Assembly (NCBI GenBank): GCA_964587835.1
Contig: CAZPMN010000004.1
Span: 14,351 to 78,350, forward strand
DNA: 64,000 nt
From: an uncultured bacterium
Lineage (GTDB): Bacteria > Auribacterota > Erginobacteria > Erginobacterales > Erginobacteraceae
Direction: 5' to 3'
Both the position numbers and the translations under genes were made by a program. This document shows, piece by piece, positions 7,323 to 64,000 of this stretch (position 1 is its first letter; the number at the start of each line of letters is the position of its first letter). Below the pieces are notes generated by a model. That model did not search any database. It was not told where the DNA came from and worked only from the letters and a program-made list of their open reading frames with translations.

Positions 7323-10300
7323 ATGAATCGATCTCGGATTAAGAAGAAGGCGATTAGGTCTCTGGCCGCCCTGGCGGTCGCCTCTATCTTGACTTTTTCC
7401 CCGGGTCTGGCTGCTGCTCAGGCTGATATCCTCCCCTTCCAACCGGGCGACACCCTGGAGGAGATCCGCTACAAGATAGATTACAACGGTTACAGCTTCA
7501 CCGTGGAAGAGAACCGGATCTTTGGCTTGCCCGCCGAGGAGAAGGCTGCCCTCTTCAGCCGCCACCTTCCCCTCCATCCCCGTCGCTACAGTGTCAACGA
7601 CGAGATCGGGCCTCTGGCTCGGCATCTGGAAAAACAAGCGCTTCCCGATAGTTTCGACTGGCGGGATTACAACGGTACCGGTCGGGACTATATCGGGCCG
7701 GTCCGGGACCAGGGCAACTGCGGATCCTGTTACGCCTTCGGCGCGGCGGCCGCCGCCGAGGGTACCTATAACTACGCCAAGGGAAGATTCGGCGACAACC
7801 GGGCGGAATTCTCCGAGGCCTTCATCGCTTTCTGCCTGGACGACCATTACGAAGGATTCGCCGGCTGCGGCGGGGCCGATTACGACTACGATGAGCTGCA
7901 GGCCCTGGTCGATTACGGGATCTGCAGCGCCGCCGAATATCCCTATATGGATTATCAACAGCTCTGCCCTTTCGGCACCTACCCGGAGCTGACCAAGTTC
8001 AACTCCTGGCACCGGATCCCCTGCGGCGACATCGAAGCGATCAAGACTGCGATTATGACCTACGGGGTGGTCGATGCCGCAGTGTATGTCGGGGAGGCCT
8101 TCCAGGCTTACGCCAGCGGGGTTTACGAGGATGAGAATACCGACTGCTACTCCTCCCCCTGTTACTACACCCCGACCAACCACGCAATATCCCTGGTCGG
8201 CTGGGACGACAACCCCCCGGAGGGGGGAGGGGGGTGTTGGATTCTGCGCAACTCCTGGGGAGAGGATTGGGGCGAGGACGGATATATGCGGTTGCGCTAT
8301 GACGCCGCCCGGGTCTCCTGCGAGTGCTCCTATCTGATCTACGAGGAACCCCGGGGCGGCCCGCTTAGAATCGCCACCTTCAATGTCAGCGTCTGGGGAT
8401 CGATCCCTGGGGTGGAGACGAAGAGAACCTTCCAGGGCCTGTTACCGGACATCGCCCTCTTACAGGAGTGGGGGATGGCCGACGGGGCCCACCTGGGTTA
8501 CGTCGAGGAAGCCTTTGGACCGGATTTTTACTACTATCTTGGCTGGGCTCCCGGGGCCGCGATCAACCGGGAGCAGAATAACGGGGTGGTCAGCCGGTGG
8601 TTCATTCAGACCTGCGGGGACTGGCGGGATCCGACCGGGCCGTCCAACCGGGCCGCCTTCGCCTGGGCTGAGATCGACCTTCCCGGGCAGAACGATCTGC
8701 TGGCCGTCTCCGTACACCTGAAGGCGGGAGACTCCCTGGACGAGCGGGCCGAACGGGAAGCACAGGCCAACGCGATCAAGGACTATGTGGAAGATTACCA
8801 GACCGCCACGGGCTTTGACGGTTATGTCGTGGTCGCGGGGGACCTGAATTTTATGAGCATCGTCCAGGACGCGGCCGCCCTTTCCGTTTTTGAGAGTTTC
8901 CTCGAGGCAACCGATCATCGCCCGGCCGATCACACAGGCAACCAAAATACCAACTCCAACCGGGAAAGGCCTTACGACTGGCTGATGCCCAACGCATTGC
9001 TCAACAGCAGACATGCCGATCTGACCATCGGCAGCGGCGATTATATCTACCCGGAAGGGCTCGTCTTCGATAGCGACGTCTTCTGGTTCGAGGGGGGGGC
9101 TCCTTACCCGGCTCCGGCCTACGGCACCGAACTCTGGAACCTGCCCCCGGTCCGTTACGGAGACAGCCACAGCGGGGTGACCGACCATATGGCGGTGATG
9201 AAGGCGTTCGAGGCCCTGCCCGAACCCACTCCAACCCCGCTGGCTACCCGGACCCCACAGCTGGCGCCCACCCCCGTGGCGGTGCTGGGGCCGATCCGCG
9301 GTCGGGTCTATGACCGGGTGACGGGGGCGGGGATTTCCGGGGTTCATGTGCTGGCGTTGGGAAGCGGGGGGAGCGCGGGCGGATTATCCGGATCCAACGG
9401 CTGGTACCAGACCCGGGACCTGAGCGCCGGAACCTACGTCGTCTACGCCGACACCTTCGGCCAGCCCGATTACCGCCCGCAGTATTACGACCAGAAAGAT
9501 GAAGAGGGTCAGGCCACCCTGGTCGTTTCCAATTCCTCAGGAATCAATTTTCCGCTCTACCGTCGTTGGGCTTATCCCACCCCACCGCCGCCTCCCACCC
9601 CCCCCCGAGGTCCCTCGCCGACACCGCCTCCGCCGCCGACCCCGGACTGGCTTCCCTCCTGGATTGACAGTGCCGATTATGATGGCGATGGGGTCAGCGA
9701 GATCGGGATCTTCCGCCCCTCCAGCGGGCTCTGGGCGATCCGGGGCCTGACCCGGGTTTATTTCGGGAGGTCCGGTGACCTGCCCGTTCCGGGAGATTAT
9801 ACCGGGGATGGGACCTCCGACATCGCCGTCTTCCGGCCCTCCTCCGGCCTCTGGGCGATCCGGGGTTCGACCCGCGCGTATTTTGGCCGCCGCGGCGATC
9901 TGCCGGTCCCGGGGGACTACGGCTCCGCCGGCCGGGCCGGTATCGCCGTCTTCCGGCCCTCGTCAGGGCTCTGGGCGATCCGGAGTTTGACCCGGATTTA
10001 TTTCGGCCGTTCCGGCGATCTCCCGGTGCCCTATAATGAAAGCGGGGAGAAGAAGATAGCGGTCTTCCGGCCCCCATCCGGCCTCTGGGCGGTCCGGGGA
10101 TCAACCCGGGTTTACTTCGGTCGTTCCGGTGATATCCCGGTTCCCGGCCTGGCCACCAACCCCTCCGGTACGGTGCAGCTGGGATTTTTCCGGGAGGCAT
10201 CGGGCCTCTGGGCGGTTCGGGAAACAACCAGGGTTTATTACGGACGATCCGGCGACCGGCCGCTAGTGGTCAACCCTGTCGGACCGGTCCAGCTGGGAGT

Positions 10301-10421
10301 CTTCCGGGATGGGTCGGGGCTGTGGGCGATCCGGGGGACGACTCGGGCTTACTTCGGCCGGTCCGGCGATCTGCCGGTCTCCGGGCTGTCCATCAACCCC
10401 TCAGCCGCCAGCAGTCTTTAA
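7323..10421 (+). CDS. Secreted multidomain protein: papain-like C1A cysteine peptidase, an endonuclease/exonuclease/phosphatase (EEP) domain, a CarboxypepD_reg-like domain, a Pro-rich linker, and ~6 FG-GAP-like repeats
   Basis: Signal peptide (LAALAVASILTFSPGLAAAQA). C1 motifs QGNCGSCYAFGAAAAAEG (Cys), NHAISLVGWDD (His), WILRNSWGEDWGEDGYMRL (Asn/Trp). EEP motifs LRIATFNVSVWGS, VVAGDLNF, GVTDHMAV. IRGRVYDRVTGAGI. Repeats as in the previous gene. Confidence 0.85.
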   Translation: MNRSRIKKKAIRSLAALAVASILTFSPGLAAAQADILPFQPGDTLEEIRYKIDYNGYSFTVEENRIFGLPAEEKAALFSRHLPLHPRRYSVNDEIGPLARHLEKQALPDSFDWRDYNGTGRDYIGPVRDQGNCGSCYAFGAAAAAEGTYNYAKGRFGDNRAEFSEAFIAFCLDDHYEGFAGCGGADYDYDELQALVDYGICSAAEYPYMDYQQLCPFGTYPELTKFNSWHRIPCGDIEAIKTAIMTYGVVDAAVYVGEAFQAYASGVYEDENTDCYSSPCYYTPTNHAISLVGWDDNPPEGGGGCWILRNSWGEDWGEDGYMRLRYDAARVSCECSYLIYEEPRGGPLRIATFNVSVWGSIPGVETKRTFQGLLPDIALLQEWGMADGAHLGYVEEAFGPDFYYYLGWAPGAAINREQNNGVVSRWFIQTCGDWRDPTGPSNRAAFAWAEIDLPGQNDLLAVSVHLKAGDSLDERAEREAQANAIKDYVEDYQTATGFDGYVVVAGDLNFMSIVQDAAALSVFESFLEATDHRPADHTGNQNTNSNRERPYDWLMPNALLNSRHADLTIGSGDYIYPEGLVFDSDVFWFEGGAPYPAPAYGTELWNLPPVRYGDSHSGVTDHMAVMKAFEALPEPTPTPLATRTPQLAPTPVAVLGPIRGRVYDRVTGAGISGVHVLALGSGGSAGGLSGSNGWYQTRDLSAGTYVVYADTFGQPDYRPQYYDQKDEEGQATLVVSNSSGINFPLYRRWAYPTPPPPPTPPRGPSPTPPPPPTPDWLPSWIDSADYDGDGVSEIGIFRPSSGLWAIRGLTRVYFGRSGDLPVPGDYTGDGTSDIAVFRPSSGLWAIRGSTRAYFGRRGDLPVPGDYGSAGRAGIAVFRPSSGLWAIRSLTRIYFGRSGDLPVPYNESGEKKIAVFRPPSGLWAVRGSTRVYFGRSGDIPVPGLATNPSGTVQLGFFREASGLWAVRETTRVYYGRSGDRPLVVNPVGPVQLGVFRDGSGLWAIRGTTRAYFGRSGDLPVSGLSINPSAASSL
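9672..10421 (+). repeat. ~6 tandem FG-GAP-like 40-aa coding repeats, homologous to 6482-7213
   Basis: ADYDGDGVSEIGIFRPSSGLWAIRGLTRVYFGRSGDLPVP and following units. About 75% nt identity to the units in the upstream gene. Confidence 0.7.
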
Positions 10422-30490: not shown

Positions 30491-31381
30491 CTAACTCTCG
30501 TAGGCGGCCTTTTTGCCGAGGACCTTCTTCTGTAGCACTGTCAGAAAGAGGATAATGAAGAAGAGCACGTAGGCGATCGCGCAGGCGTAGCCGAAGAGGT
30601 TGTTATTGAAGGCGGTCCGATAGAGGTAGAAAACCCCTGTGGTGGTGGATTGGAGCGGCCCGCCGCCGGGGGTGAGGATAAAGACCGGAACGAACATCTG
30701 GAAGGAAAAGATGGTGGAGATGGTGAGGAGGAAGAGCGTGGTCGGAAAGAGGAGCGGCCAGGTGATGAAACGGAACTTGGCCAGGGCGTTGGCCCCGTCG
30801 ATATCGGCGGCTTCGTAGTAGGAGGAGTTGATGTCCAGCAGCCGGGTCAGGAAGATCAGGATATTGAAGCCCATTGTCTTCCAGACAATGAAGAGGATGA
30901 TCGCGACCCGGGCCCAGGTGGGGTCCTGGAGCCACCGGATCTCACCGGGATCGGCCCCGAAGAGGGATCCGACGGCGTTGATGACCAGGTTGAGCAGTCC
31001 CCGGGGCTGAAGGATCCAGCGCCAGACAATGGCGATGGCGGTCATCGAGGCTATGTAGGGTATGAAGAAGGCGGTCCGAAAGAAACCGAGGCCGCGAATC
31101 TTCTTGCTCAACAGGACCGCCACCAGAAGGGAAAGGCCGAGTCCGAAGACGATTGATCCCAGGGAGAAGATGGCGGTATTGAGGAGGGAGAGGAGGAATT
31201 CCGAATCCTGAATGAGGATCAGGTAGTTTCTCAGGCCGATAAACTCGGAGGGGGAGACCATATCCCAGCGGAAGAAGCTGAGATAGAGGGCGTAGAACAT
31301 CGGGAGAATGAGAAAGACCAGGATCACCACGAAGGCGGGGAGGATGTAGAGCAAAGGACTGAATTTCGCGAGTCTGCTCAT
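30491..31381 (-). CDS. Carbohydrate ABC transporter permease (MalF/UgpA-like)
   Basis: EAA loop EAADIDGANALAKFRFITWPLLFPT; six TMs. Confidence 0.8.
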   Translation of the reverse strand: MSRLAKFSPLLYILPAFVVILVFLILPMFYALYLSFFRWDMVSPSEFIGLRNYLILIQDSEFLLSLLNTAIFSLGSIVFGLGLSLLVAVLLSKKIRGLGFFRTAFFIPYIASMTAIAIVWRWILQPRGLLNLVINAVGSLFGADPGEIRWLQDPTWARVAIILFIVWKTMGFNILIFLTRLLDINSSYYEAADIDGANALAKFRFITWPLLFPTTLFLLTISTIFSFQMFVPVFILTPGGGPLQSTTTGVFYLYRTAFNNNLFGYACAIAYVLFFIILFLTVLQKKVLGKKAAYES

Positions 31382-31392
31382 GGTCAGCTCAC

Positions 31393-31420
31393 CGCTTACT
31401 GCTTACTGCTTACTGCTTAT
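31393..31420. repeat. Heptanucleotide tandem repeat (plus strand cgcttac tgcttac tgcttac tgcttat; minus strand aagcagt aagcagt aagcagt aagcggt) spanning the stop of gene 31410..33272; gives stops in all three frames on the coding strand
   Basis: Read directly: four 7-nt units. The TAA of the upstream gene lies inside a unit, and TAA/TGA recur in all three frames across the 29-nt spacer before the next start (31381). Confidence 0.6.
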
Positions 31421-33272
31421 CGTCCTCCCCCACCCTCGCCGCCCGTTCCCGATGATAGGCGGCCAATCCCACGTCACCCGCAGCCTCAAAATAGAAGGCG
31501 AGGTTCTTCCGGTCTCGAACCGAGTTCGGATTGAGTTCCACCGCCCGTTGGAGGTGGTGGTAAAGCTGCTGGTTCTCGCCCTCTTCCCGGCTAGGGTCCG
31601 CCAGCAAGGAATGGGCCCGCCAGGAAATGGGGTCAATGGCCAGCGCACTCTGTCCTGCTTCCCGGGCCCGTTGCCGCTCACCCTGTTCCAGGTACAGACT
31701 GCAGAGGCGCAGGTCGGGTTCGGGGCTGTACGGCTCCCTCTCTTTCGCCTTCCGGTAGTGTCGTTCCGCCGCCGCCGGATCTCCTTTGTCCGCGGCGATC
31801 GATCCCAGGACCAGTTCAGCCCCCGCGAGTTCGGGATGAAGTGTCAGCGCCTGTTCCGCCAGTTTCCGGGCCTGGGTTGCCTTCCCCTCCATATTCGCCT
31901 TTTGTGCCCGAAAGAGCAAGCGATTTGTCTCGGAGCGCATCTCCACCCGGTGCCGGGAACGGGTGGCGAGGACCAGGAAGGGAAGCAGGATGGCCGCCGC
32001 GGCTACCCGCTTCATCCTCCGTTCCCTCAGGGAGCGCCAGAGAAAGATGATCGTTCCGGCCGCCGGGACGGCCAGGGCCGGAACCATCAGCAGCCGGCTT
32101 CTCCCCCGGAAGAAGAAAATGATTATCGCTGCCGCCTGGGCTGCCAGGTAGAAGAAGAACGGCTGCCCGGCCGGGCGTTGCCGGCAGAGAAGGAAGATGC
32201 CCAGCAGGGCCGGGGGGAGAATTATTCCGAAGCAGAGCAGCGGCAGACCGAAGAGCCTCCAGGCTTTCCCGGCCTCGGCCTCGGTGCCGAGATCGAAATA
32301 TTCCCGGGGGCTGAAGATCAGTCGGAACTTCCTGCCCAAAAGTCGCAGCTCCTCCCCGGGATGGTTGGTCAGGTAAAGCCATCCTTCCCGGAACCAGAAA
32401 CGGGAAACCCCGGCGGCATCCAGTTCCCGGCCGGTCCGTCTCTCGGCTTCCCGGCGGCTGTCGGTGATGATCCCGGTGGCTGAGGGGGTGAGGAAGAGCG
32501 GCGTTCGGAAACCACCGTTGGCCTCCGGATTGTTCCCGATATAGAAATTGATCCCCGAATGGGCGGTCAGGAGGACCGGCCCCCTGGACCTCCGACTGTT
32601 TCGGGCCGCGTACGGCAGCAGAACCGCCAGGATGCCGATGACGGTCAAAACCTCTCTCCAGAACAGTGCTGGTCCCCTCCCCCGCTCCCGGGGGATCCGG
32701 AAGAGGATCAGGAGAAGGGCGAAGAGCAAATTGCCGGGGGCGAAGATCGACGCCAGTCCGAGGAGAAATCCGCCGACCAACCAGGACAGGAGGTGTCCGG
32801 ACTTGGGCAGGTATGTCCACCAGGCCAGGGCGAGCAGGGAGAAGAAGAGGGCCGGGCCGGTCGGAAGCAGCCGGTTCTCAAAAAAGATGATCGGACCGTA
32901 GAAGACCACGATCAGCCCAGCCAGCAACCCTCCCCCCGGCCCCAATAATTTCCGGCCGATCAGGAAGGTCAACCCGCAGCCCAGTCCGCCCAGAAGGGCT
33001 TGAAAGGCCCAGACCAGTTTAGGACGTCTCCCCGCCGTTCGGTAGATGGTCGTCAGCAGGCTCGGATAACCGGGAAGGGCGTAAATTTCTCCCGGAAAGA
33101 ACGACCGCCCGGCCGCGTGAGCCGCGGCCAGGCGGTCGTAGTTGTACTCGTCCATCCCGGCGGGGAAGTCGTACCGGTTGGGATCAAACGCCCGCTCCGC
33201 CTGGAAAGCCCCCCGGACTGCTAACCCCAGCAGGGACACCGCCAGGAAGATCAGGATGTTCCTCTTCTCCAA
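31410..33272 (-). CDS. GT-C fold membrane glycosyltransferase (GT39/GT83, PMT/ArnT-like, with DE motif) fused to C-terminal TPR repeats
   Basis: N-terminal polytopic region with MDEYNYDRL (DE motif in loop 1) and many TMs. C-terminal TPR units (ARKLAEQALTLHPELAGAELVLGSIAADKGDPAAAERHYRKAKEREPYSPEPDLRL...). Confidence 0.7.
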   Translation of the reverse strand: MEKRNILIFLAVSLLGLAVRGAFQAERAFDPNRYDFPAGMDEYNYDRLAAAHAAGRSFFPGEIYALPGYPSLLTTIYRTAGRRPKLVWAFQALLGGLGCGLTFLIGRKLLGPGGGLLAGLIVVFYGPIIFFENRLLPTGPALFFSLLALAWWTYLPKSGHLLSWLVGGFLLGLASIFAPGNLLFALLLILFRIPRERGRGPALFWREVLTVIGILAVLLPYAARNSRRSRGPVLLTAHSGINFYIGNNPEANGGFRTPLFLTPSATGIITDSRREAERRTGRELDAAGVSRFWFREGWLYLTNHPGEELRLLGRKFRLIFSPREYFDLGTEAEAGKAWRLFGLPLLCFGIILPPALLGIFLLCRQRPAGQPFFFYLAAQAAAIIIFFFRGRSRLLMVPALAVPAAGTIIFLWRSLRERRMKRVAAAAILLPFLVLATRSRHRVEMRSETNRLLFRAQKANMEGKATQARKLAEQALTLHPELAGAELVLGSIAADKGDPAAAERHYRKAKEREPYSPEPDLRLCSLYLEQGERQRAREAGQSALAIDPISWRAHSLLADPSREEGENQQLYHHLQRAVELNPNSVRDRKNLAFYFEAAGDVGLAAYHRERAARVGEDDKQ

Positions 33273-33652: not shown

Positions 33653-34063
33653 TTAGGGGTTGACGTTGGTCAGGGACATAGTATCAAAATCTATCCGCCG
33701 GTAGTAGCAATTTCTTGCTTCTCCGAGGCGGTTTTTCGTATGGCAGATCCCTCCCCGGCGGGGCCGGACCCGGTAGAGGAGCGAGTTCTGCTCGCAGTTA
33801 ACGTAGGCCTCCACCAGCTCGAAGGTCTCCCCCGAGGTCTTGCCCTTCTCCCAGAGTTTGTTGCGGGAGGTGGACCAGAGAACCAGGGAGCGGGAAGCGA
33901 ATGACTTTCTCATCGCCTCCTCGTTGGTGTAGGCGACCAGGATCACCTCCCCGGTCCCGATATCCTGGACCGCCACCGGAATTACGTCCGGGCAATTCTC
34001 CGATACCTTCCGGATCTTGCCGAAATCCAGTTTCAGTTCCTTCCCTTCCTCCAGTTCCTTCAC
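33653..34063 (-). CDS. hisI: Phosphoribosyl-AMP cyclohydrolase
   Basis: LVLWSTSRNKLWEKGKTSGETFELVEAYVNCEQNSLLYRV...ICHTKNRL...CYY signature. GTG start with AAAGGAG RBS. Confidence 0.8.
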   Translation of the reverse strand: MKELEEGKELKLDFGKIRKVSENCPDVIPVAVQDIGTGEVILVAYTNEEAMRKSFASRSLVLWSTSRNKLWEKGKTSGETFELVEAYVNCEQNSLLYRVRPRRGGICHTKNRLGEARNCYYRRIDFDTMSLTNVNP

Positions 34064-34080: not shown

Positions 34081-34140
34081 CACTGCTTACCGCTTACTGC
34101 TCACTGCTTCCCGATTACTGATTGCCGATTACTGATTACT
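34081..34140. repeat. Degenerate heptad tandem repeats filling the hisA-hisI spacer (minus strand: TAATAAG TAATCAG TAATCGG CAATCAG TAATCGG GAAGCAG TGAGCAG TAAGCGG TAAGCAG TGA...)
   Basis: Read directly at 34081-34140: about 8 units of 7 nt. The hisA stop lies inside the array, and there are multiple TAA/TGA in all frames on the coding (minus) strand. Confidence 0.6.
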
Positions 34141-34867
34141 TATTACCCGCCGCCGCCCGGATCGCTTCCGACAAATCCAGCGTCCCCGCGTAGATCGCCT
34201 TCCCGGTGATAACCCCGGCCAGCCCTTTTCTTTCCAGTTTCTTCAGGTTGCGGATGTCTTCCAGGTTGGAGACCCCCCCGGCGGCGATAACCTGCAATCC
34301 GGTCTGTTCCAGAAAATTCTCCAGCGCGGTTAGGTTCGGCCCCTCCAGTGTCCCGTCGGCGGTGGTGTCGGTGTGGATGACCAGGGTGAAGCCGATCTTC
34401 TTCAGGTCTTGGCCCAGATCCTCCGCCTTCAGTTCGGTCTTCTCCTCCCAGCCCCGGACCATCACTCTCCCGTCCCGGGCGTCGATCGAGGGAATGACCC
34501 GGTCCCGGAATTCCCGGTGGATCTCCACCAGGAAATCGGGGTCGTTAACCGCCCTGCTGCCCACGATCACCCGGTTCACTCCCCCGGCCAGGAGCGTCTC
34601 GATCGTCTCCGGGTTCCTCACTCCACCCCCCAGTTCTACCGGGATGGAGACAGCGGAGATAATCTCCCTCACGGCCTTGAGGTTGCGAGGCTCCCCGGCA
34701 AAGGCCCCGTCGAGATCGACCACGTGGAGGAACTCCGCCCCTTCCCCCGCCCATCTCCGGGCCATCGCGGCCGGGTCCTCGGAGTAGACCGTCTCCCGAT
34801 CCGCCTTTCCCTGGTAAAGCCGGACGCAGCGCCCGGATTTAATATCGATTGCCGGCAGTATGATCAT
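34136..34867 (-). CDS. hisA: ProFAR isomerase (1-(5-phosphoribosyl)-5-[(5-phosphoribosylamino)methylideneamino]imidazole-4-carboxamide isomerase)
   Basis: MIILPAIDIKSGRCVRLYQG...VDLDGA...VELGGGVR...IAAGGVSNLEDI are HisA/HisF TIM-barrel signatures. Confidence 0.85.
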   Translation of the reverse strand: MIILPAIDIKSGRCVRLYQGKADRETVYSEDPAAMARRWAGEGAEFLHVVDLDGAFAGEPRNLKAVREIISAVSIPVELGGGVRNPETIETLLAGGVNRVIVGSRAVNDPDFLVEIHREFRDRVIPSIDARDGRVMVRGWEEKTELKAEDLGQDLKKIGFTLVIHTDTTADGTLEGPNLTALENFLEQTGLQVIAAGGVSNLEDIRNLKKLERKGLAGVITGKAIYAGTLDLSEAIRAAAGNK

Positions 34868-34874
34868 AGTTCTG

Positions 34875-34902
34875 TTTACTGCTCACTGCTTACCGCTCAC
34901 TG
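34875..34902. repeat. Four heptad units (minus strand CAGTGAG CGGTAAG CAGTGAG CAGTAAA) exactly filling the hisB-hisA spacer
   Basis: Plus strand tttactg ctcactg cttaccg ctcactg at 34875-34902, between the hisB stop (34913-34915) and the hisA ATG (34865-34867). Confidence 0.6.
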
Positions 34903-34912
34903 TTCCCCGACC

Positions 34913-35503
34913 CTACATCTTCCCCTTGGTCGAAGGCACCCCCTTGACCCGGGGATCAATCTCCACCGCCTCCCGCAGGGCCCGGCCCAGCCCCTTGAAG
35001 ACCGCTTCGATGGTGTGATGGACGTCCTCCCCGTAAAGGACGTTGATATGGAGGGCGAAGCGGCCCTCGGCGGTGAGGGCGCGAAAGAATTCCTTGAAGA
35101 GTCCGACGTTGAAATCCCCGATCTTGATCCGGCGGATTTTTGGGTTGTAGACCAGGAAACTCCGTCCCCCGATATCCACCGCCACCCCCGCTAGGGCCTC
35201 GTCCATCGGCAGGGAGGCCGACCCGTACCTGGCGATTCCCTGCTTCTCTCCCAGGGCCTGCAAGAGAGCCCGGCCCAGGCAGATCCCCAGGTCCTCGACC
35301 GTGTGATGATAATCCACCTCGAGGTCGCCCCGCGCCTTGACCTTGAGGTCAAAAAGGCCGTGGCGGCCGAAGAGTTCCAGCATATGATCGAAGAAAGGGA
35401 TCCCCGTATCGATCGCCGTCTTCCCCTCGCCGTCCAGGTTCAGCTGAATGGATATATCAGTCTCTTTGGTCTTTCTCTGCACCCGGGATAATCTTTTCTT
35501 CAT
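34913..35503 (-). CDS. hisB: Imidazoleglycerol-phosphate dehydratase
   Basis: RKTKETDISIQLNLDG...IPFFDHMLELFGRHG...DYHHTVEDLGICLG are IGPD metal-binding motifs. ATG 35503 has an AAGGA RBS; the track GTG is at 35509. Confidence 0.85.
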   Translation of the reverse strand: MKKRLSRVQRKTKETDISIQLNLDGEGKTAIDTGIPFFDHMLELFGRHGLFDLKVKARGDLEVDYHHTVEDLGICLGRALLQALGEKQGIARYGSASLPMDEALAGVAVDIGGRSFLVYNPKIRRIKIGDFNVGLFKEFFRALTAEGRFALHINVLYGEDVHHTIEAVFKGLGRALREAVEIDPRVKGVPSTKGKM

Positions 35504-35518
35504 AATCACCGTTCCTTT

Positions 35519-35546: not shown

Positions 35547-35593
35547 GTAAGCTCCCACTGGTCTTGCCGAACCACTGCCGGAATACCGGCACT

Positions 35594-35642
35594 TGGAAAT
35601 TGGATATTCCTTGTTGGATATTGGATATTCAGATATTCAATA
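35594..35642. repeat. TTGGATA-type heptad direct repeats (about 6 units) in the hisC-hisB spacer
   Basis: ttggaaa ttggata ttccttg ttggata ttggata ttcagata ttcaata read at 35594-35642. Confidence 0.45.
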
Positions 35643-35671: not shown

Positions 35672-36724
35672 TCAACCCTGGTCCGATAAAATCTCGCGGA
35701 TCGCCCCGGTCAGCAGGTCCATCTGCTCCGGGGTCCCGATACTGATCCGGATAAACTCTTGCAAGCGCGGAGTATCGAACCAGCGGACCAGGATCTTCCG
35801 TTCGAAGAGGGCCTCGTACAACTCCCCCGCTCTCCCCTCCGGCGGCCGTCCGAGGAGGAAGTTCGCCCCGGAGGGAATTACCCTGAATCCCAGATCAACC
35901 AGGGTATTCGCCAGGCGCTCCCTCTCCGCCACTATCCGAGCCGTGGTCTCCTGGAAATACTCCCGGTCGGCCAGGGCGGCGGCGGCGGCGGCGGCCGAGA
36001 CGGCGTTGAGGTTGTAGGAGTCCTTGACCTTCATCATCCCGGAGACGACCTCCTCCGAGGCGAAGGCGTAACCGACCCGCAATCCCGCCAGGGAGTAAGA
36101 CTTGGAGCAGGTCCGGGTGACCAGAAGGTTGGGGAAGTCGAGCAGCAGGGGGAGGGAGCTCTCCTCGGCGAAATCGACGTAGGCCTCGTCCACCAGCACC
36201 ATCCCTTCGGTCTTCCGGAGAAGACGCTCGATCGCCGCGATCGGGTAGATGGTGCCGGTAGGGGAGTTGGGCGAGGCGATCAGCTTGATCGCGGCCTTCG
36301 CCCCGAAAAACTCCTCGGGGAGTCCGAAGTCCTCATCAAGTTCATAAGCCGCCGGCTTTGCTCCCTGGATCCGAGCCAGGACCCCGAAGAGGCTGTAGGA
36401 GGGGGTCGGGAAGGCGACCCGGTCTCCTTCCCCGGCAAAGCAGCGCAGGGCCATCGCCAGCAGTTCGTCGGAACCGTTGCCGGCGATAATCCGTTCCACC
36501 GGGAGGCCGTAAACCTCGGCGATCACCTCTCTCAGCCGGACGGAGAGGGGATCGGGATAAAGGCGCAGGCTGTCCTCCCCGGTCTTCCGGATCGCCGCGG
36601 CCGCTCCGGGGGCGGGGGGATAGGGATTCTCGTTGGTGTTGAGCTTGACAAATCCCCCGCCCTTCGGCTGGAACCCGGGCTGGTATGGTTCCAGCCCGTC
36701 TATGTTGTTCCTGAACCAGTTCAT
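35672..36724 (-). CDS. hisC: Histidinol-phosphate aminotransferase
   Basis: Class II aminotransferase: LNTNENPYPP N-terminus; Lys region TCSKSYSLAGLRVGY. Confidence 0.85.
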   Translation of the reverse strand: MNWFRNNIDGLEPYQPGFQPKGGGFVKLNTNENPYPPAPGAAAAIRKTGEDSLRLYPDPLSVRLREVIAEVYGLPVERIIAGNGSDELLAMALRCFAGEGDRVAFPTPSYSLFGVLARIQGAKPAAYELDEDFGLPEEFFGAKAAIKLIASPNSPTGTIYPIAAIERLLRKTEGMVLVDEAYVDFAEESSLPLLLDFPNLLVTRTCSKSYSLAGLRVGYAFASEEVVSGMMKVKDSYNLNAVSAAAAAAALADREYFQETTARIVAERERLANTLVDLGFRVIPSGANFLLGRPPEGRAGELYEALFERKILVRWFDTPRLQEFIRISIGTPEQMDLLTGAIREILSDQG

Positions 36725-58687: not shown

Positions 58688-59368
58688 ACCGTTCCGGGCA
58701 GCGCCCGCCTCCACAAAGTAGGTTGACCAGCCGCGCTTCCGCCGGTATTCCCGACCCCGCCCTGCCTCCAGGAATTCCTTCCCCGGAACCTCGCGGCGCG
58801 CCAGCCACTTGCAGGGGTAGAAGAGGAGCATACTTAAGACCTCGAAGAATCCGCCGGCGGACCAGACCCGGAGGGGCTGAAAGCCGCTTCGGGCCAGTAT
58901 ATTCAGGAGTTTATCGCGGCGGTAATGACGGTGGCCCGCGTACCAGGCGGGGTCGGTCAGGGTTGACCGGAGATCGAATTTGGGCGTCGAGAGCAGGAGC
59001 CGACCGTCGGGCTTGAGAACCCGCCTGACCTCCCGGAGGGATTCGCCGACCGAATCCGTCGCCAGGTGTTCGAGAACCTCCCACATCACCACCAGATCGA
59101 ACCATTCACCTCGGAAGGGCAGCGCGGGAAGCCGGCCCCGGAGGAATTCGGCGCCGGGCACCTCGCGGGCGGCGGCAGCCAGACTTTTCTGGTCCCGGTC
59201 GAGCCCCACCGCCCGACGGCAGCCTACCTTCACCACCCCCGCCTCGAACCAGCCGTTTCCGCAGCCGATGTCAAGGACTGCCTGTTTCGTCAGATCTCCC
59301 GCCGCCGCCACCGATGCCGTGTGCCTTCCCGTCCAGCGGGCGGCGATTGATTCGGAATATCTTTTCAT
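58664..59368 (-). CDS. Class I SAM-dependent methyltransferase
   Basis: VLDIGCGNGWF (motif I), DLVVMWEVLEHL, VLKPDGRLLL. ATGA overlap with the upstream GT2. Confidence 0.7.
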   Translation of the reverse strand: MKRYSESIAARWTGRHTASVAAAGDLTKQAVLDIGCGNGWFEAGVVKVGCRRAVGLDRDQKSLAAAAREVPGAEFLRGRLPALPFRGEWFDLVVMWEVLEHLATDSVGESLREVRRVLKPDGRLLLSTPKFDLRSTLTDPAWYAGHRHYRRDKLLNILARSGFQPLRVWSAGGFFEVLSMLLFYPCKWLARREVPGKEFLEAGRGREYRRKRGWSTYFVEAGAARNGSDGGGGT

Positions 59369-60195
59369 CTCTGTCCGGAGATTGGGGAAGCGAGATAAAC
59401 CAGGCCGACCGCCAGTCTTAGAAAGATCATCCCGCCGGCCAGAAGCGGATGACAGATCAGCTTCTTCCACTTCCTCTCTTCCAGGAATACGCCGAGGTAG
59501 CGATAGTAGAGGCCGAACTGTTTCTTGATCTCGGGGTCTTCTCTCCCCCACTTGGCGATATATTCGGCGAAACCCCGGCTATAGTAACGTTTCTTCGCCA
59601 GATAATGGCGGAGGCAGAACAGGCCCTCGTTGTGGAAGATCACCGCATCGGCGAGTCCTGCCTTTCCGCCGGCCCGGAGCCGGCGGTCAAAGTCCCAGTC
59701 TTCAGGGCCGTTGAGATTTTCGTCGAAACCGCCGATCTTTAGGGCCGCCGCCCGGGGGAAGAACCGGGCGGCATCAATGCAGGTCCCGTCGTAAAAACTT
59801 CGCTCAAAGTCACGGACCTTGATCCAGAACCCCTCCCCGATAATGCGTTCCGGGATATAAAGGCCGGCCAGCCCCTCGCGACTGGACTTCTCCAGGCACT
59901 TCCCGATCAGTCCCTCCCCCAGGACCATATCAGCATCGAGGTAGAGGATGTACCTTCCCCGGGCCTGGGCGATCCCGAAGTTCCGCTGGGCCGAGCGCTC
60001 GGGACCGTGGTCGAAGACCAAATGGGTGAACCGGGAGGCGATCTCCTTGGTCCGATCGGAGGAATCGTTATCAACCACGATGATCTCCAGTTTCTCCCGG
60101 GGGTAGTCCTGGCGGAGAACCGACTCCAGGCAGGAGGCGATGTGCTTCTCCTCGTTCCGGGTGGTAACAACTATCGAGACGTCGATCAGTGCCAT
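59365..60195 (-). CDS. Family 2 glycosyltransferase
   Basis: VSIVVTTRNEEKHI...LEIIVVDNDSSDRT...ILYLDADMVL. Confidence 0.8.
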   Translation of the reverse strand: MALIDVSIVVTTRNEEKHIASCLESVLRQDYPREKLEIIVVDNDSSDRTKEIASRFTHLVFDHGPERSAQRNFGIAQARGRYILYLDADMVLGEGLIGKCLEKSSREGLAGLYIPERIIGEGFWIKVRDFERSFYDGTCIDAARFFPRAAALKIGGFDENLNGPEDWDFDRRLRAGGKAGLADAVIFHNEGLFCLRHYLAKKRYYSRGFAEYIAKWGREDPEIKKQFGLYYRYLGVFLEERKWKKLICHPLLAGGMIFLRLAVGLVYLASPISGQR

Positions 60196-60247
60196 AAATA
60201 GACGATAGCTTCCCTTTCCTGATGTGGCACTCCAACGGAGTGCCACA

Positions 60248-61603
60248 TCATATCAGTACGTTTTTTTCCTCTGACTCTGACTGGGGGTTTATCTCCATCC
60301 CTAGCCCTGTCGGACGCTGGAAGAGGCTCGGGGTGAGGAAGAGAGTTCCCAGGAAAGAGAGGCAGCCGAAGATGTTGAGGATGAGGAGAACCTCCCGCAG
60401 ACCGGGATGCCAGAGATAGATCGCCGCCGCCTGACCCACCGCGGCGATCAGGAGAAACTTGATGAACCGGGTGGAGCCGACCGAGAGGTTGTAGAAAATC
60501 TCCAACCAGAGCAGAGAATAGAAACTCATTGCCAGGGCGAAGAGGCCGACCAGGGAGACAATCTCGGAGTCGGTCTTTCCGGTCAGGATTCCCAAAACCA
60601 GACTCGGAGCCAGCCAGCAGACCGCGGTCGCTGAACCCGAGAGCAGCGCGGCTAGTTTCAAACCCCGGTGGAAGAGGTGGATGCTGGAGGAGTTGATAGC
60701 CTTGAGCGAGGCGGCCTTGGGAAAAACCACCAGGGCCACCGCGGCCGGGAGAAAGAGGATAATCTTCCCCACCATCTGGGCCACCGAGTAGTAGCCCGCT
60801 TCCTGCGGGGAGAAGAAGGCCTTGACCAGGGTAATGTCTATGTTGGTTAGGATGGCGAAAGAGAGCAAGGCCAGCATCGTGGGGATGATATATCGGTAGA
60901 TCGGTCCCATTGTCGGGGAGGGCAGCACCGATGGCAAGGTGCGGCGGCGGAAATATCCCCGGATCAGCCGGACCCCGATCAGGAGCATCAGGGCCGGGGC
61001 GAATAAATAGCCGGAGAGTGCCCCCGCCACTCCGGCTCCGGCCAGAACCAATCCGATTCCGAGAACAAGCTTGGTCAGGGCGTAGGAGACATTGAGGAGG
61101 GCCAGGGGGCTGAACTTCTGGGCCCCCTGGAGAAAGGCCGCCGGGAGGCAGGCGGGCAGGTGGACCGCCACTACCAGGCCCAGGATGTAGAAGAGGCTGA
61201 CGGCGTCAATCTGCTGGGCCCGGGCCAGGGGGCCGGCGGCGATAAAAAAGACCAGCAGGAGTCCTCCCGCTCCGATTCCCAGGTCGCGGCCGGCTCGTTT
61301 CACGGTTGCCGCCGCCATGGCCAGCCTTCCCCGGGCGATCTCCTCGGCGAAGAACCTGGCCAGGGCCGGCTGGATGGCGGCGGTCAGCTGGCCGAAGAAG
61401 ACGGTGAAGACCACCAGGGAGTTGAGGACGCCGTAGTTCTCCACCTCGAGGAGACGGACCATCAGGAGGTGGAAGATGAGGTTGATCACCCCGGCCAGTT
61501 GGGTCCCGGCCATCGTGATCCCGGCGTGGCGGATGAAGTCGTCTCTTAAAATTTTTTTTCCAAAAATTTTAAGATCGAGGATTCTGTTCTTGAAATCTTC
61601 CAT
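60248..61603 (-). CDS. wzx: Polysaccharide biosynthesis protein / Wzx-like flippase (MOP superfamily)
   Basis: About 12-14 TMs, typical PST-family length and architecture. ATG 61603 chosen. Confidence 0.7.
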   Translation of the reverse strand: MEDFKNRILDLKIFGKKILRDDFIRHAGITMAGTQLAGVINLIFHLLMVRLLEVENYGVLNSLVVFTVFFGQLTAAIQPALARFFAEEIARGRLAMAAATVKRAGRDLGIGAGGLLLVFFIAAGPLARAQQIDAVSLFYILGLVVAVHLPACLPAAFLQGAQKFSPLALLNVSYALTKLVLGIGLVLAGAGVAGALSGYLFAPALMLLIGVRLIRGYFRRRTLPSVLPSPTMGPIYRYIIPTMLALLSFAILTNIDITLVKAFFSPQEAGYYSVAQMVGKIILFLPAAVALVVFPKAASLKAINSSSIHLFHRGLKLAALLSGSATAVCWLAPSLVLGILTGKTDSEIVSLVGLFALAMSFYSLLWLEIFYNLSVGSTRFIKFLLIAAVGQAAAIYLWHPGLREVLLILNIFGCLSFLGTLFLTPSLFQRPTGLGMEINPQSESEEKNVLI

Positions 61604-61608
61604 CGATC

Positions 61609-61699
61609 GAGATTGCTTCCTGCCTGCCGGCAAGCGGGCGTCGCCCTTTTGTCGGGGCACGGCATGCCGTGCCCCGACATCGGGCCGGATCGCAATGAC
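61609..61699. repeat. Copy D of the GAGATTGCTTCC...CGCAATGAC palindromic repeat element (91 nt) filling the spacer between the B12-rSAM stop and the flippase start; contains a perfect 28-nt palindrome
   Basis: gagattgcttcc...gtcggggcacggcatgccgtgccccgac...cgcaatgac; perfect palindrome at 61651-61678. Confidence 0.6.
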
Positions 61700-61704
61700 A
61701 GTGT

Positions 61705-63210
61705 CTATTGAAAGTCGCGGAGGTGGCCCCAGACCTTCTTCCCGGCCCGGAGAAAGTATCGGATATCCGACCAGTTTCGGATACTGATGACTTTCCGGGC
61801 CAGGAAGAGGGGATTATAAGCAATCGAGTACATTCCTCGAACCAGTTTCATCAAATCCTTCTCCGGGAAGGGAGTCTTCATCACCGGCCGTTTCATATCA
61901 TAGTTGGGCCAGTCTTCGGTTAGCAGCCAGCCATTCTCCTTACACTCTTGATAGAGGGGGGTTCCAGGATACGGAACCACCACCGTTGCCTGCATCGTAT
62001 AGGCCCAGCCCTTCTTCAACAGGAAGCGACCCAGTTCAAAGGTGTTCCGGGCCTGTTCGTAACTTTCCCAGGGGTAACCGAACATAATCGTGATGTGGGG
62101 ATAGAGGCCGGCCCGGCGGGCATTCCGGCAGGAATCGATGATCGTCTCCACCTTCAGGTTCTTGTTCAGTCGGTCCAGGGTTTCCTGGTTGCCGCTCTCC
62201 AGTCCGAAGAGGAGGAAGCGGAAGCCCGCTTCCTTCATCAGCCGGTAATCATCCGCCGAGGCGGCCCCGAAGCGGAAGTTGCAGTCGAACCCCACCTTCC
62301 GGTTAAAGCCGCGATCCACCGCCCCCCGGCAGAAATCGCGCAGCCATTCGCCCCGGGGGAAGGTCCCGGTATCGTCCATTATCTCCCGGACCGGGTACCG
62401 GCCGGTGATTTGCCCGATCTCGTCGAGAACATTTCCCACCGTCCGGACCCGGAACTTCGGATAGAGTCCGGTCCAACTGCAGAAGGTGCACTTTCCCCAC
62501 CAGCAGTCCCGCCCGCTCATAATGTAGGTCCCCGGAGTCCGTCGATAGTTGCCGTTCCGGTAGGCGTAGAGTTCCCACTTGGTCAGTTCCCGGTCGATGA
62601 AGGGGACTCCATCGAGATCGTGGTTGAGTTGGAAGGGGCCGGTGTTCTTGATCTCTCCGCCGTCGCGGTACCAGATTCCCGCAGGGAGGGAATGGGGTGT
62701 TGGGGAATGGAGAATGGATTTTGGGGAATGGGGAATGGGGAATGGGGAATGGTCCAGAACCCGGCAGAGATCGCGGAGGAGGAAGTCGTAGTCGCCGCCG
62801 GTGAGGACGTAATCGACCGGCGAGTTGGCCAGGGACTCTTCGGGGAGAGCGGTGACGTGGTCACCACAAAGAACAGTAAGCGGTAAGCGGTGAGCGGTAA
62901 GCGGCAACTGCTTGATCTCGCTGATGAGCTTCCAGTGCTCCCGGATCACCGGGGTCTTGGTCTCAAAGACGATCAGATCGGGTTTCTCCCGCTCCAGCAT
63001 CCGGAAGTATGCCTCCCGCTCGATCCCTTCGGCGGCGCAGTCGTTCCAGATCACCCGATAGCCGGCATCGCGGAGCATCGTGGCGGCGGAGGCCGGGACC
63101 ACCGGATAGATGAAGGTCGGCTCGCTGAAGTACTGGAACTGCCGGTTCTGCCCCAGTGTGGGAAACCCCTTGGCTCTATCGAGGGGCGGGTATGAGAAGA
63201 TAATCTTCAC
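61705..63210 (-). CDS. B12-binding domain radical SAM protein carrying two in-frame insertions encoded by heptad tandem repeats
   Basis: MKIIFSYPP... B12-binding-like N-domain; SGRDCWWGKCTFCSW Cys motif; radical SAM core (FGLESGNQETL). Linker residues HSPFPIPHSPKSILHSPTPHS are encoded by ggggaat repeats, and LPLTAHRLPLTVL by cggtaag repeats. Confidence 0.8.
   Translation of the reverse strand: MKIIFSYPPLDRAKGFPTLGQNRQFQYFSEPTFIYPVVPASAATMLRDAGYRVIWNDCAAEGIEREAYFRMLEREKPDLIVFETKTPVIREHWKLISEIKQLPLTAHRLPLTVLCGDHVTALPEESLANSPVDYVLTGGDYDFLLRDLCRVLDHSPFPIPHSPKSILHSPTPHSLPAGIWYRDGGEIKNTGPFQLNHDLDGVPFIDRELTKWELYAYRNGNYRRTPGTYIMSGRDCWWGKCTFCSWTGLYPKFRVRTVGNVLDEIGQITGRYPVREIMDDTGTFPRGEWLRDFCRGAVDRGFNRKVGFDCNFRFGAASADDYRLMKEAGFRFLLFGLESGNQETLDRLNKNLKVETIIDSCRNARRAGLYPHITIMFGYPWESYEQARNTFELGRFLLKKGWAYTMQATVVVPYPGTPLYQECKENGWLLTEDWPNYDMKRPVMKTPFPEKDLMKLVRGMYSIAYNPLFLARKVISIRNWSDIRYFLRAGKKVWGHLRDFQ
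62685..62752. repeat. GGGGAAT-type heptad tandem array (4 perfect units at 62723-62750 plus degenerate flanking units) inside the B12-rSAM coding region
   Basis: ggagggaatggggtgttggggaatggagaatggattttggggaatggggaatggggaatggggaatgg read directly. Confidence 0.6.
62874..62908. repeat. CAGTAAG/CGGTAAG/CGGTGAG heptad array inside the B12-rSAM coding region, same family as the his-operon spacers but stop-bearing orientation on the non-coding (plus) strand
   Basis: cagtaag cggtaag cggtgag cggtaag cggcaac read at 62874-62908. Confidence 0.6.
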
Positions 63211-63294: not shown

Positions 63295-63323
63295 TTGACA
63301 GAAACTCACTATAAGTGTATGTT
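63295..63323 (+). promoter_or_regulatory. Sigma70-like promoter TTGACA-N17-TATGTT upstream of the vapB/vapC pair in a low-GC spacer
   Basis: Read at 63295-63323. RBS GGGAGG lies 8 nt before ATG 63369. Confidence 0.5.
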
Positions 63324-63368
63324 AAGTGTGTTTATCTGAGCAACTATTCAGTTGAAGGGAGGTTGATT

Positions 63369-63611
63369 ATGGCCGTGAAGACCATCACAATCGATATGGA
63401 AGCTTATGAGTTGCTGGCCGCGGAGAAGAACGGGAAAGAATCGTTCAGCCGGGTGATTAAGCGGAAATTGCGGCCGGTACATACTGCGGATAATCTATTG
63501 CGCAATCTTGCTAAGATCGAGTTATCCGACAGCACCCTGGATCGGACTGAAGAAATCATCCGGGCCCGGCGGGACTCCATTGCGGATTCTCCGGTGATAG
63601 AAAAGGAGTAA
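63369..63611 (+). CDS. vapB: Type II antitoxin (VapB-like, small predicted-antitoxin family)
   Basis: MAVKTITIDMEAYELLAAEKNGKESFSRVIKRKL; 80 aa. Its stop is 6 nt before the ATG of a PIN-domain gene. Confidence 0.7.
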   Translation: MAVKTITIDMEAYELLAAEKNGKESFSRVIKRKLRPVHTADNLLRNLAKIELSDSTLDRTEEIIRARRDSIADSPVIEKE

Positions 63612-63617
63612 CCGGCG

Positions 63618-64000
63618 ATGTTTATCGACACTTCCTTATGCATAGATTTGTTGCGGGAACAGAAGAGGCATATTGAAGGCCCGGCGATACGAAAGTTGAA
63701 ATCTCTTCCCGGGGTTGAACTCTTCGCGCCGGTTTTTGTCCTCTGTGAACTTATGGCGGGGGCCTGCCTGTCTGTTGATCCTGCGGGGGAAAAAGAACGG
63801 GTCCAGGCACTCTCCGCGATGCTGACTGTTGTCTATCCGGACTATCCTTTCGCGGATAGTTACGGCGAGACGGAAGCGCAGTTAAGAAAGGCAGGGTTCC
63901 CAATTCCGACGATGGATCTTTTGATCGGGGTTTCCGCCAAAATGCATAACCTGCCCTTAATTACCAGGGACGCGGAACATTTTCAGAGGATTCCCGGTTT
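63618..64000 (+). CDS. vapC: PIN-domain toxin VapC, 3'-partial (runs off the window end)
   Basis: MFIDTSLCIDLL (conserved Asp4)...DLLIGVSAKMHNLPLITRD; no stop before nt 64000, so it is absent from the ORF track. Confidence 0.75.
   Translation, partial: MFIDTSLCIDLLREQKRHIEGPAIRKLKSLPGVELFAPVFVLCELMAGACLSVDPAGEKERVQALSAMLTVVYPDYPFADSYGETEAQLRKAGFPIPTMDLLIGVSAKMHNLPLITRDAEHFQRIPG

Follow-up and report, generated by a model that had tools for sequence, protein, structure and literature searches.

Heptanucleotide tandem arrays in two loops of a predicted class B radical SAM gene and at orthologous sites in Auribacterota and Omnitrophota

The record of heptanucleotide tandem repeats in bacteria goes back to 1990, and such repeats exceed those of other lengths. 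In that year, Mazel et al. reportedly described the STRR heptanucleotides of cyanobacteria, for example CCCCAAT. The STRR are genome-wide families of tandem heptamers, with a few units per genome, that occur in heterocystous cyanobacteria and mainly in non-coding DNA. We know of no description of STRR occupying orthologous loops in conserved enzymes. The present analysis concerns a 64,000-nucleotide (nt) stretch from an uncultured bacterium of the Erginobacteraceae (contig CAZPMN010000004.1, positions 14,351 to 78,350), hereafter the window, in which the gene for a predicted B12-binding radical SAM (rSAM) enzyme carries two arrays of 7-nt units within its coding sequence.

Other heptamer systems have been described since. 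MacGregor (2015, PMC4679880) reported TAACTGA heptamer repeats in marine Beggiatoaceae, cyanobacteria, and Bacteroidetes. Stops in three frames characterize the "forward" repeats, which overlap the stop codon of the preceding gene and sit directly before the next start codon. The "reverse" repeats are open and are present in a few open reading frames (ORFs) as LSVISYQ; in BOGUAY, most in-ORF copies fell in hypothetical proteins or at the termini of proteins. Rehm (2015, PMC4692102) found that GGGAATC (Xanthomonas) and GGGGA(C/T)T (Nostoc) form G-quadruplexes (G4) in vitro, that G-rich heptamers favor four units and are mostly intergenic, and that the coding strand has fewer G-rich repeats than expected. 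Nostoc heptamers have also been placed near start codons (10.1101/2022.06.06.494920). In Haemophilus influenzae, 7-bp repeats control HMW1A, a case of simple sequence repeat (SSR) phase variation (PMC8262952), in which slipped-strand mispairing can alter the frame or the expression of a gene.

Our comparison of the window with its relatives suggests that the two in-gene segments are local copies of dispersed heptanucleotide direct repeats of the STRR/TAACTGA type, which would pervade the PVC lineage Auribacterota/Omnitrophota and be shaped by slippage or exchange together with a reading-frame filter. We give this explanation a probability of roughly 55%.

Two in-gene arrays and their orthologous sites

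The window arrays were determined by direct reading of the region and with Tandem Repeats Finder (TRF). The gene, an intact ORF, and its two arrays are listed here with lengths in amino acids (aa) where applicable.

61705-63210, minus strand: predicted class B radical SAM gene, 501 aa, hosting both heptanucleotide arrays
62688-62752, minus strand: site-2 array, nine units, 63 nt, 21 codons (9.1 copies by TRF)
62874-62908, minus strand: site-1 array, about five units (TRF, 62876-62904, 4.1 copies, 90% matches)

On the plus strand, the site-2 array has four perfect GGGGAAT units at 62723-62750 and five more units that are degenerate. Its coding-strand unit is CCATTCC (equal to CCCCATT), and the peptide is HSPFPIPHSPKSILHSPTPHS (aa 154-174). 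The site-1 array reads CAGTAAG CGGTAAG CGGTGAG CGGTAAG CGGCAAC (CRGTAAG-type) on the plus strand, with coding-strand units CTTACCG/CTCACCG, and encodes LPLTAHRLPLT (aa 102-112); the encoded segment through aa 114 is LPLTAHRLPLTVL (aa 102-114), and the last degenerate unit (ACTGTTC) extends into the conserved Thr-Val-Leu codons of strand 111-115. From the codons, CTTACCG is predicted to yield a cyclic heptapeptide of the LTAYRLP type and CCCCATT one of HSPFPIP. The original prediction, made from the letters of the window, had described two in-frame 7-nt arrays in a B12-radical-SAM gene, and its coordinates, units, and peptides all agree with ours. It had also described the second array as having stops in every frame of the plus strand, and reading the site-1 array on that strand confirmed stops in all three. 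Among short periods, period 7 alone gave long self-matching runs in the window (3 vs 0 in shuffles).

The 501-aa protein matched Pfam Radical_SAM at aa 234-393 (50.9 bits, cutoff 29.5) and B12-binding at aa 41-137 with a score slightly below the cutoff (28.1 bits vs 32.1). Cysteines C236, C241, and C244 were invariant in an alignment of 47 homologues, with a Cx4Cx2C spacing that departs from the canonical CxxxCxxC. By these sequence features, the product is assigned as a class B (cobalamin-binding) radical SAM enzyme. No NCBIfam equivalog was reached; the best matches, HpnJ (134 bits, cutoff 578) and BchE, were both far under cutoff. The AlphaFold model of the protein had a mean predicted local distance difference test (pLDDT) score of 87, and both array sites were low-confidence loops in it. 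Site 1 is the loop between helix 89-99 and strand 111-115, and site 2 is the loop between helix 141-153 and strand 179-183, with pLDDT below 50 at residues 158-168. The nearest solved structure, AprD4 (6fd2), aligned over the radical SAM core only and is thus uninformative on the array loops. Both segments had been taken for an interdomain linker. This holds for the HSP... segment, which lies at the domain boundary, but not for LPLT..., a loop within the B12-binding domain; because the model places site 1 inside that cobalamin-binding domain, site 2 alone is linker-like.

A protein search returned thousands of homologues. The closest rSAM homologues (59-85% identical) were from PVC-group genomes, "Ca. 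Euphemobacter", "Ca. Tritonobacter", and Omnitrophota metagenome-assembled genomes, and the nearest named relative was "Ca. Erginobacter occultus" of the phylum Ca. Auribacterota. In the alignment of 47 homologues, the array segments fell at the sole two length-variable positions of the family, and the flanking residues were nearly invariant (…EIK / TVLxGDHVTALPEES… at site 1 and …GGDYDFLLxxLC / LEPGIWYR… at site 2). Many homologues had heptamer-like peptides at these sites, such as LPITDHRSPIT, STIDHRPLT, LNAIRYPLSA, STINYQLST, and QSPIPNPQ. The alignment thus bears out the earlier view of the segments as insertions, which are in frame and at hypervariable loops. The earlier view would have failed if orthologues had linkers free of repeats; the repeat structure was present in them, and the phenomenon is therefore lineage-wide rather than a curiosity of a single gene.

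For DNA, we sampled 80 orthologous loci from species-representative genomes and 43 loci from metagenome contigs (loci are denoted by L and a number), and site-1 and site-2 DNA was extracted from 103 orthologue alleles of Auribacterota/Omnitrophota. Mean self-identity of the site DNA at lag 7 was 0.45 for site 1 and 0.41 for site 2, compared to 0.25-0.28 and 0.24-0.27, respectively, at lags 3, 5, 6, 8, and 9. Self-identity of at least 0.5 at either site was reached by 65 of the 103 alleles at lag 7 and by at most 6 at the other lags; 38 had no 7-nt periodicity at either site. The units were lineage-dependent, for example CTATCGA (read as LSTIDYR), TTACCAA (LPITNYQ), and GTNACTG (LVTGDWQ).

TRF found 93 arrays of at least 3 copies at period 7 and no more than 14 at any other period in the loci and window together (1.19 Mb). 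When the loci alone were considered (1.12 Mb), the rSAM gene held 49 of 93 period-7 arrays of at least 2.8 copies in 10.7% of the bases, a density of 0.41/kb compared to 0.044/kb outside the gene (binomial P = 1e-23). Arrays inside the gene clustered at +295-315 and +441-485 nt. Copy number had a median of 4.1 and a range of 3.0-5.3, and the 9-copy site-2 array of the window was the longest among the orthologues; the shortest orthologue loops were 8 and 11 aa. In-gene units were stop-free in 42 of 51 cases as read and would be so in 19 of 51 if reversed. Their base composition (A 0.30, C 0.31, G 0.17, T 0.23) was mostly neither G- nor C-rich.

One orthologue, L002, had a 54-aa loop at site 2 that contained a 34-nt direct duplication (CCCCAATACTTCGGCAAGCTCAGCACATGTT x2) and a FDFAQG-type sequence; these loops therefore collect non-heptamer repeats too.

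Heptamer arrays were also found in housekeeping genes of the sampled loci: HisF (L057, L032), ribulose-phosphate 3-epimerase (Rpe; L076, L067), phosphoglucomutase (PGM; L076, L025), TyrRS, a DegT aminotransferase, a GT2, and a 4-alpha-glucanotransferase. The two HisF arrays aligned to one position, and their units differed by a single mismatch (CCATCAG vs CCATTAG); the two Rpe arrays were at an orthologous loop with units that also differed by one mismatch (GTGCAAA vs GCGCAAA). Arrays at orthologous loops of HisF and Rpe rule out the rSAM gene as a unique array host. Homologues of HisF found with the L057 protein ranged from 250 to 317 aa, and 38 of the 120 closest had an insert of at least 5 aa at one loop, directly before WEVY. 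These inserts were of the rSAM heptapeptide types (LSAIRYPLSA, LTVDCRPLT, STINHQPST, LSTVNCQLST, and RPSSFVLRPSS); LSAIRYPLSA and LSTVNCQLST were found in both families, and the unit CCATCAG was identical between hisF of L057 and site 2 of the rSAM gene of L009.

Outside the rSAM gene, the window contains four intergenic arrays, all in short spacers between co-directional minus-strand genes, some of which belong to the his operon.

31387-31419, minus strand: intergenic array, plus strand GCTCACC GCTTACT x3.7, mRNA (CAGTAAG)n
34082-34146, minus strand: intergenic array of about nine units, plus strand CTTACCG, CTTACTG, CTCACTG, ATTACTG
34872-34902, minus strand: intergenic array, plus strand TTTACTG CTCACTG CTTACCG CTCACTG
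35593-35639, minus strand: intergenic array of about five copies of TTGGATA, a different unit from the other intergenic arrays

The array at 31387-31419 includes the TAA stop of a TPR gene (31410-33272) and terminates 5 nt short of where an ABC permease gene (30491-31381) begins. The array at 34082-34146 includes the stop of a His_biosynth gene (34136-34867) and lies 18 nt before the GTG start of PRA-CH (33653-34063). The array at 34872-34902 separates the IGPD gene (34913-35509), with its stop at 34913, from the His_biosynth gene, which starts at 34867. On the other side of IGPD, the array at 35593-35639 fills part of the spacer to a histidinol-phosphate aminotransferase-like gene (35672-36724). 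The first three share the unit family of site 1 (CTTACYG, CTCACYG, and ATTACTG on the plus strand). On the mRNA, these CTYACYG arrays read as (CAGTAAG)n with stops in three frames, the reverse complement of the site-1 array in the rSAM mRNA; they terminate 5-18 nt ahead of the next start, and two include the stop codon of the upstream gene. The original prediction that one element is used in both orientations is upheld by these three arrays, which carry the site-1 unit family reversed.

Reading frame and turnover of the units

The reading frame at the arrays was assessed in both sets of loci. The window protein was compared to the 80 genome loci by tblastn, and the metagenome loci were assessed with a degenerate pattern of the invariant flanks (ETKTP … GDHVTA … GGDYDF … GIWY) in which both sites were gaps of free length. 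None of the 80 genome loci was out of frame at the arrays. The only two frame changes found by tblastn, in L004 (approximately nt 185) and L055 (approximately nt 10279), were each a single extra C well outside the arrays. These are probably consensus errors, and they would cause the gene to be mis-annotated as split. Both gaps were divisible by three in all 43 metagenome alleles, with none out of frame. In total, frame loss at an array site was observed in 0 of 123 independently assembled alleles.

Members of clusters with at least 90% protein identity differed by 7-aa blocks within the arrays (501/508/515/536, 509/502, and 504/511 aa), each block corresponding to three units (21 nt). Among approximately 80 members of ten 90%-identity clusters, one clear allele was frameshifted at an array. 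This allele (P0126, locus L124, on a 20.8-kb contig) had 6 units at site 2 compared to 14 in L125, an intact allele that is 90-96% identical; the difference was exactly 56 nt, or 8 units. The frame of L124 was shifted at site 2, and the downstream frame was fully open. Non-triplet changes in unit number thus happen and are rare in assemblies. The perfect GGGGAAT units had been called prone to slippage in the original prediction. Unit number does vary among close strains, but a regular switch is not supported by the 123 alleles, none of which was off-frame.

Another candidate OFF allele (P0131/L126) was rejected as an artefact, as unrelated sequence begins 60 nt from the contig end. Some other truncated cluster members were C-terminal fragments that begin at internal Met residues. 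In L127 (P0128, 1140-nt contig), the frame passes from the site-1 array straight into the site-2 array through the shared unit TCAACCG, with deletion of the approximately 150 nt that encode GDHVTALPEES…GGDYDF. Either the two arrays recombined with each other or the assembly collapsed at this point.

The units themselves changed in more than one way. Among close relatives of the window, the units drifted gradually, with CTTACCG (window), CTCACYG (L001), CTCACCG (L002), and ATCACCG (L004) at site 1, and at site 2 the unit CCCCATT was present in both the window (9 copies) and L004 (3.9 copies). Elsewhere, site-1 units were wholly different between alleles that are approximately 89% identical (RLETGDWRLETV vs RLSTIDYRPLIV). 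Of 98 genes, 11 had at least three direct 7-mers in common between sites 1 and 2, and 5 had at least three inverted ones; in 2000 permutations, the means were 1.3 and 0.7 and the maxima 6 and 4, respectively. L067 had the unit ACGCTTC in common to two genes. When TRF units inside genes were compared to those outside, pairs from the same locus were not significantly closer than pairs from different loci (approximately 15-60 kb per genome).

More complex elements were present at some sites. L060 had the same element of approximately 60 nt at both sites, in which AACTTTC heptamers flank two small GGCGGA/TCCGCC hairpins, and which encodes LSTFSAKGGSA[AT]GGNF[RQ]LST. Site 1 of L054 had both orientations of the site-2 unit (GTGGCGA vs TCGCCAC) and was palindromic; in the mRNA, the two loops could base-pair across approximately 30 nt, or they could form a cruciform by extrusion. 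Site 1 of L055 (10300-10440) had a perfect hairpin with a 10-bp stem (GAACCCTGAT A ATCAGGGTTC) nested between heptamer arrays of three units (CTTACCG, CCGGTCA, and CTGATTA/CCGATCA), all of which are in frame and would be read as loop.

Explanations for the arrays

According to the dispersed-repeat explanation, the repeats would be a phenomenon of the DNA level. Between co-directional genes, they would lie in the orientation with stops in three frames, and inside genes the stop-free orientation alone would survive, where three units (21 nt) read in three phases would give a cyclic heptapeptide. Replication slippage and unequal exchange or conversion would add, remove, and homogenize units. Purifying selection would then pass only net lengths divisible by three (typically 3 units, or 7 aa), only the stop-free orientation, and only loops that tolerate insertions. 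For the rSAM gene, two helix-to-strand surface loops of the cobalamin-binding half would have been occupied, turned over, and re-homogenized in most relatives. Out-of-frame slippage products would arise and then be removed, and the gene would therefore not be a switch. The array peptides are probably tolerated passengers that form flexible loops. We infer the slippage/conversion mechanism, the translation of the arrays, and the neutrality of the peptides. This repeat and filter model explains why the sites are conserved and the units lineage-specific, why the polymorphism comes in 7-aa steps, why a frameshifted allele is rare, and why housekeeping genes are among the hosts.

Several observations weigh against this explanation. 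Slippage by a single unit needs out-of-frame intermediates, yet perfect arrays of 4-5 units have been renewed in essential genes (hisF). Whole units were switched between alleles of approximately 89% identity, as for RLETGDWRLETV and RLSTIDYRPLIV. The sharing of units between sites 1 and 2 was far above chance and points to exchange between loci, beyond slippage alone. Tolerant loops alone do not account for the 9-fold enrichment of the rSAM gene over its neighbors, nor does the model account for the preference for period 7. The narrow copy number (median 4.1) hints at a further constraint.

Some of these same observations are what an actively copied system would produce, in which the arrays do not grow locally. 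Gene conversion, or a templated or mobile mechanism, would deliver pre-formed blocks copied from arrays elsewhere in that genome, and the survivors would be those that are in-frame, stop-free insertions in tolerant loops. Stepwise growth by 7 nt is implausible in essential genes, and units were replaced wholesale between the approximately 89% identical alleles. The sharing of 7-mers between sites 1 and 2 (direct in 11 and inverted in 5 of the 98 genes), the hairpin-bearing 60-nt element at both sites of L060, the occurrence of CCATCAG in hisF of L057 and site 2 of L009, the recurrence of LSAIRYPLSA and LSTVNCQLST across rSAM and HisF, and the identity of the window site-1 unit with the window intergenic units all favor such copying. 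However, no transposase, terminal inverted repeats, or other machinery was associated with the arrays. The gradual drift of units among close relatives (site 1, and CCCCATT kept in L004) fits vertical inheritance, in-gene and out-of-gene units of one locus were not significantly more alike than those of different loci, and the unit switches could be recombination tracts from other strains. We regard copying of this kind as unlikely.

A functional nucleic-acid element is also a doubtful explanation. Selection would keep the arrays as regulator sites (a role proposed for the TAACTGA and Nostoc heptamers), as template-strand G-quadruplexes, or as translation or transcription pause sites between folding units, and the coding sequence would only make room for them. 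Array positions are conserved across the phylum though the units change, and the copy number is narrow at about 4, the same preference that was reported for G-rich heptamers (Rehm 2015, PMC4692102). Intergenic copies lie directly upstream of start codons, as in Beggiatoaceae and Nostoc. The G4 possibility arises from GGGGAATGGGGAATGGGGAATGGGG (62723-62747), the only canonical G4x4 motif on the plus strand of the window; its consecutive G-tracts, at least four in number and of 3 or more G with short loops between them, are those of G4-forming heptamers. For (GGGGAAT)4, ViennaRNA predicted a quadruplex with a minimum free energy of -38 kcal/mol with the gquad option compared to -4.2 kcal/mol without it. 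The G-rich strand of site 2 is the template strand, and the mRNA has the C-rich strand. G4 formation was ruled out as a general explanation because most orthologous units are not G-rich; by this prediction, it may be a local property of the site-2 array of the window. Further points against a nucleic-acid element are that 38 of the 103 alleles were aperiodic at both sites and that heptamer direct repeats predict no secondary structure (MacGregor 2015, PMC4679880). Moreover, copies in ORFs and copies in intergenic DNA are reverse complements of each other, and a factor that binds the RNA of one kind would not recognize the other.

On the minus strand, the window has a G4x4 motif only in a hexamer array, (CCCCCA)5.5, at 5481-5513.

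In a further reading, a dedicated lineage-wide mechanism might write or copy heptamer arrays at specific positions, including fixed internal sites in conserved housekeeping genes and the two rSAM loops, and re-homogenize them, with a function at the DNA or RNA level. We consider this a tentative and rather unlikely proposal. If such an active repeat system were true, the arrays would be a new genome-wide sequence signal that is tolerated within coding regions and not passive microsatellites.

Phase variation was the suggestion of the original prediction, and we judge it improbable. In such a contingency gene, slipped-strand mispairing would often toggle the enzyme ON and OFF, which would be useful in an envelope-polysaccharide cluster. 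The 7-nt unit within the ORF is indivisible by 3, four perfect units are present, the arrays are in the first third of the ORF, the adjoining genes encode a flippase and a glycosyltransferase, strains are polymorphic in unit number, and L124 is a natural allele minus 8 units that is frameshifted with the remaining gene intact. Against this, none of the 123 independently assembled alleles was off-frame at either site, and only a single frameshifted member was found among approximately 80 in the clusters. The arrays are short (median 4.1 copies) and often imperfect, and 38 of the 103 orthologue alleles are aperiodic at both sites. Equivalent arrays are at fixed loops of HisF, Rpe, PGM, and TyrRS, and contingency switching cannot be the role of an array that sits in an essential enzyme, where toggling between ON and OFF would make no sense. 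The claim of a phase-variable enzyme is therefore not sustained.

A function of the peptides themselves is very unlikely. In that case, selection would have favored S/T/P/L-rich cyclic heptapeptide loops for a role in linking or in interaction, and the periodicity of the DNA would be incidental. It is true that loops are always present at some length, that the peptides are loop-friendly, and that the sites are constant. Protein selection, however, cannot create a 7-nt periodicity because each codon phase differs. The peptides are also unconserved, and closely related alleles can carry entirely different ones. In some orthologues, the loops measure no more than 8 and 11 aa, and pLDDT is low at these residues.

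A sequencing or assembly artefact at a low-complexity region can be virtually dismissed, since, although repeats confuse assemblers and L126 and L127 appear to be such artefacts, the window ORF is intact, like arrays are present at both sites in more than 60 independently assembled relatives, and the arrays (29-65 nt) are below typical read length.

Gene neighborhood and known repeat systems

Two genes follow the rSAM gene in the window.

60248-61660: Polysacc_synt flippase-like gene, next after the rSAM gene
59365-60246: GT2 glycosyltransferase, after the Polysacc_synt gene

The order rSAM-flippase-GT2 is also present in L124 and L125. A perfect 30-nt palindrome with no loop (TGTCGGGGCACGGCA / TGCCGTGCCCCGACA) is located at 61650-61679, in the spacer directly downstream of the rSAM stop (61705), where it precedes or extends across the GTG codon annotated as the Polysacc_synt start. 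It may represent a hairpin terminator, an attenuator, or a REP-like element. On the other side of the rSAM gene, a small ORF of 98 aa (63315-63611) with a weak NCBIfam match (NF010249, 37 bits, cutoff 90) is next to a PIN-domain ORF (63618-63998) that runs past the window end. Together they resemble a toxin-antitoxin pair of the VapBC type, oriented divergently to the rSAM gene. Two regions, 6481-7046 and 9709-10376, hold longer tandem repeats (period 114-123 nt, identity 74-85%); when translated by eye, they look like FG-GAP/VCBS-type repeats (…GDYNGDGQADIAVFR…GLWAVRG…) of large secreted proteins.

Families of heptamer repeats were known before, and in-ORF "reverse" copies had been mentioned in passing. 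A literature search found no report of heptamer repeats in Omnitrophota, Auribacterota, or other PVC bacteria, nor of phylum-wide occupancy of orthologous fixed enzyme loops by heptamers. The present arrays extend the phenomenon to the uncultured PVC phyla Auribacterota and Omnitrophota. Heptamers can persist for long periods inside conserved enzymes, at the same loops, read in three phases, and with turnover by 3 units. Units that are common to different sites and genes point to exchange between loci. For annotators, the alleles are a warning that such genes should not be called phase-variable or frameshifted on sight, and the arrays account for odd low-complexity loop insertions in Omnitrophota proteins (LSTIDYRPLT, LSAIRYPLSA). 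The 123 natural alleles are also a data set on the evolution of non-triplet repeats under a reading-frame constraint.

Of the known systems, SSR contingency loci are like the window arrays in having a unit that is not a multiple of 3 and a unit number that varies among strains. Contingency loci have frequent OFF alleles and long homogeneous tracts, whereas here 0 of 123 alleles were off-frame and the tracts are of about 4 units; contingency loci are also surface or restriction genes, the loss of which brings a conditional advantage, and the present arrays are found in HisF and Rpe as well.

The G-rich repeats of Rehm (2015) are approached by the site-2 array, since (GGGGAAT)4 is a G-rich heptamer with exactly the four G-tracts needed for a G4, and its G-rich strand is non-coding, which fits the strand bias reported there. 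In contrast to the intergenic bias of those repeats, the window array is inside an ORF, and the orthologous arrays of most relatives are not G-rich.

For the STRR, the likeness is in the unit, with CCCCATT of site 2 being one base from STRR1 CCCCAAT.

The TAACTGA system is similar in being composed of dispersed tandem 7-nt direct repeats (2-6 copies in TAACTGA). As in that system, the intergenic arrays of the window are in the stop-bearing orientation near stop and start codons, and the in-ORF copies are in the open orientation with a predicted cyclic heptapeptide. When TAACTGA is rotated to ATAACTG, it differs from the window unit ATTACTG at a single base. However, the units here are CTTACCG, CTTACTG, CTCACTG, ATTACTG, TTGGATA, CCCCATT, and many lineage-specific others, and the host lineage is PVC (Auribacterota/Omnitrophota), unlike the hosts of TAACTGA. 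In contrast to BOGUAY, the arrays occupy fixed internal loops of conserved enzymes, at sites that are orthologous across the phylum.

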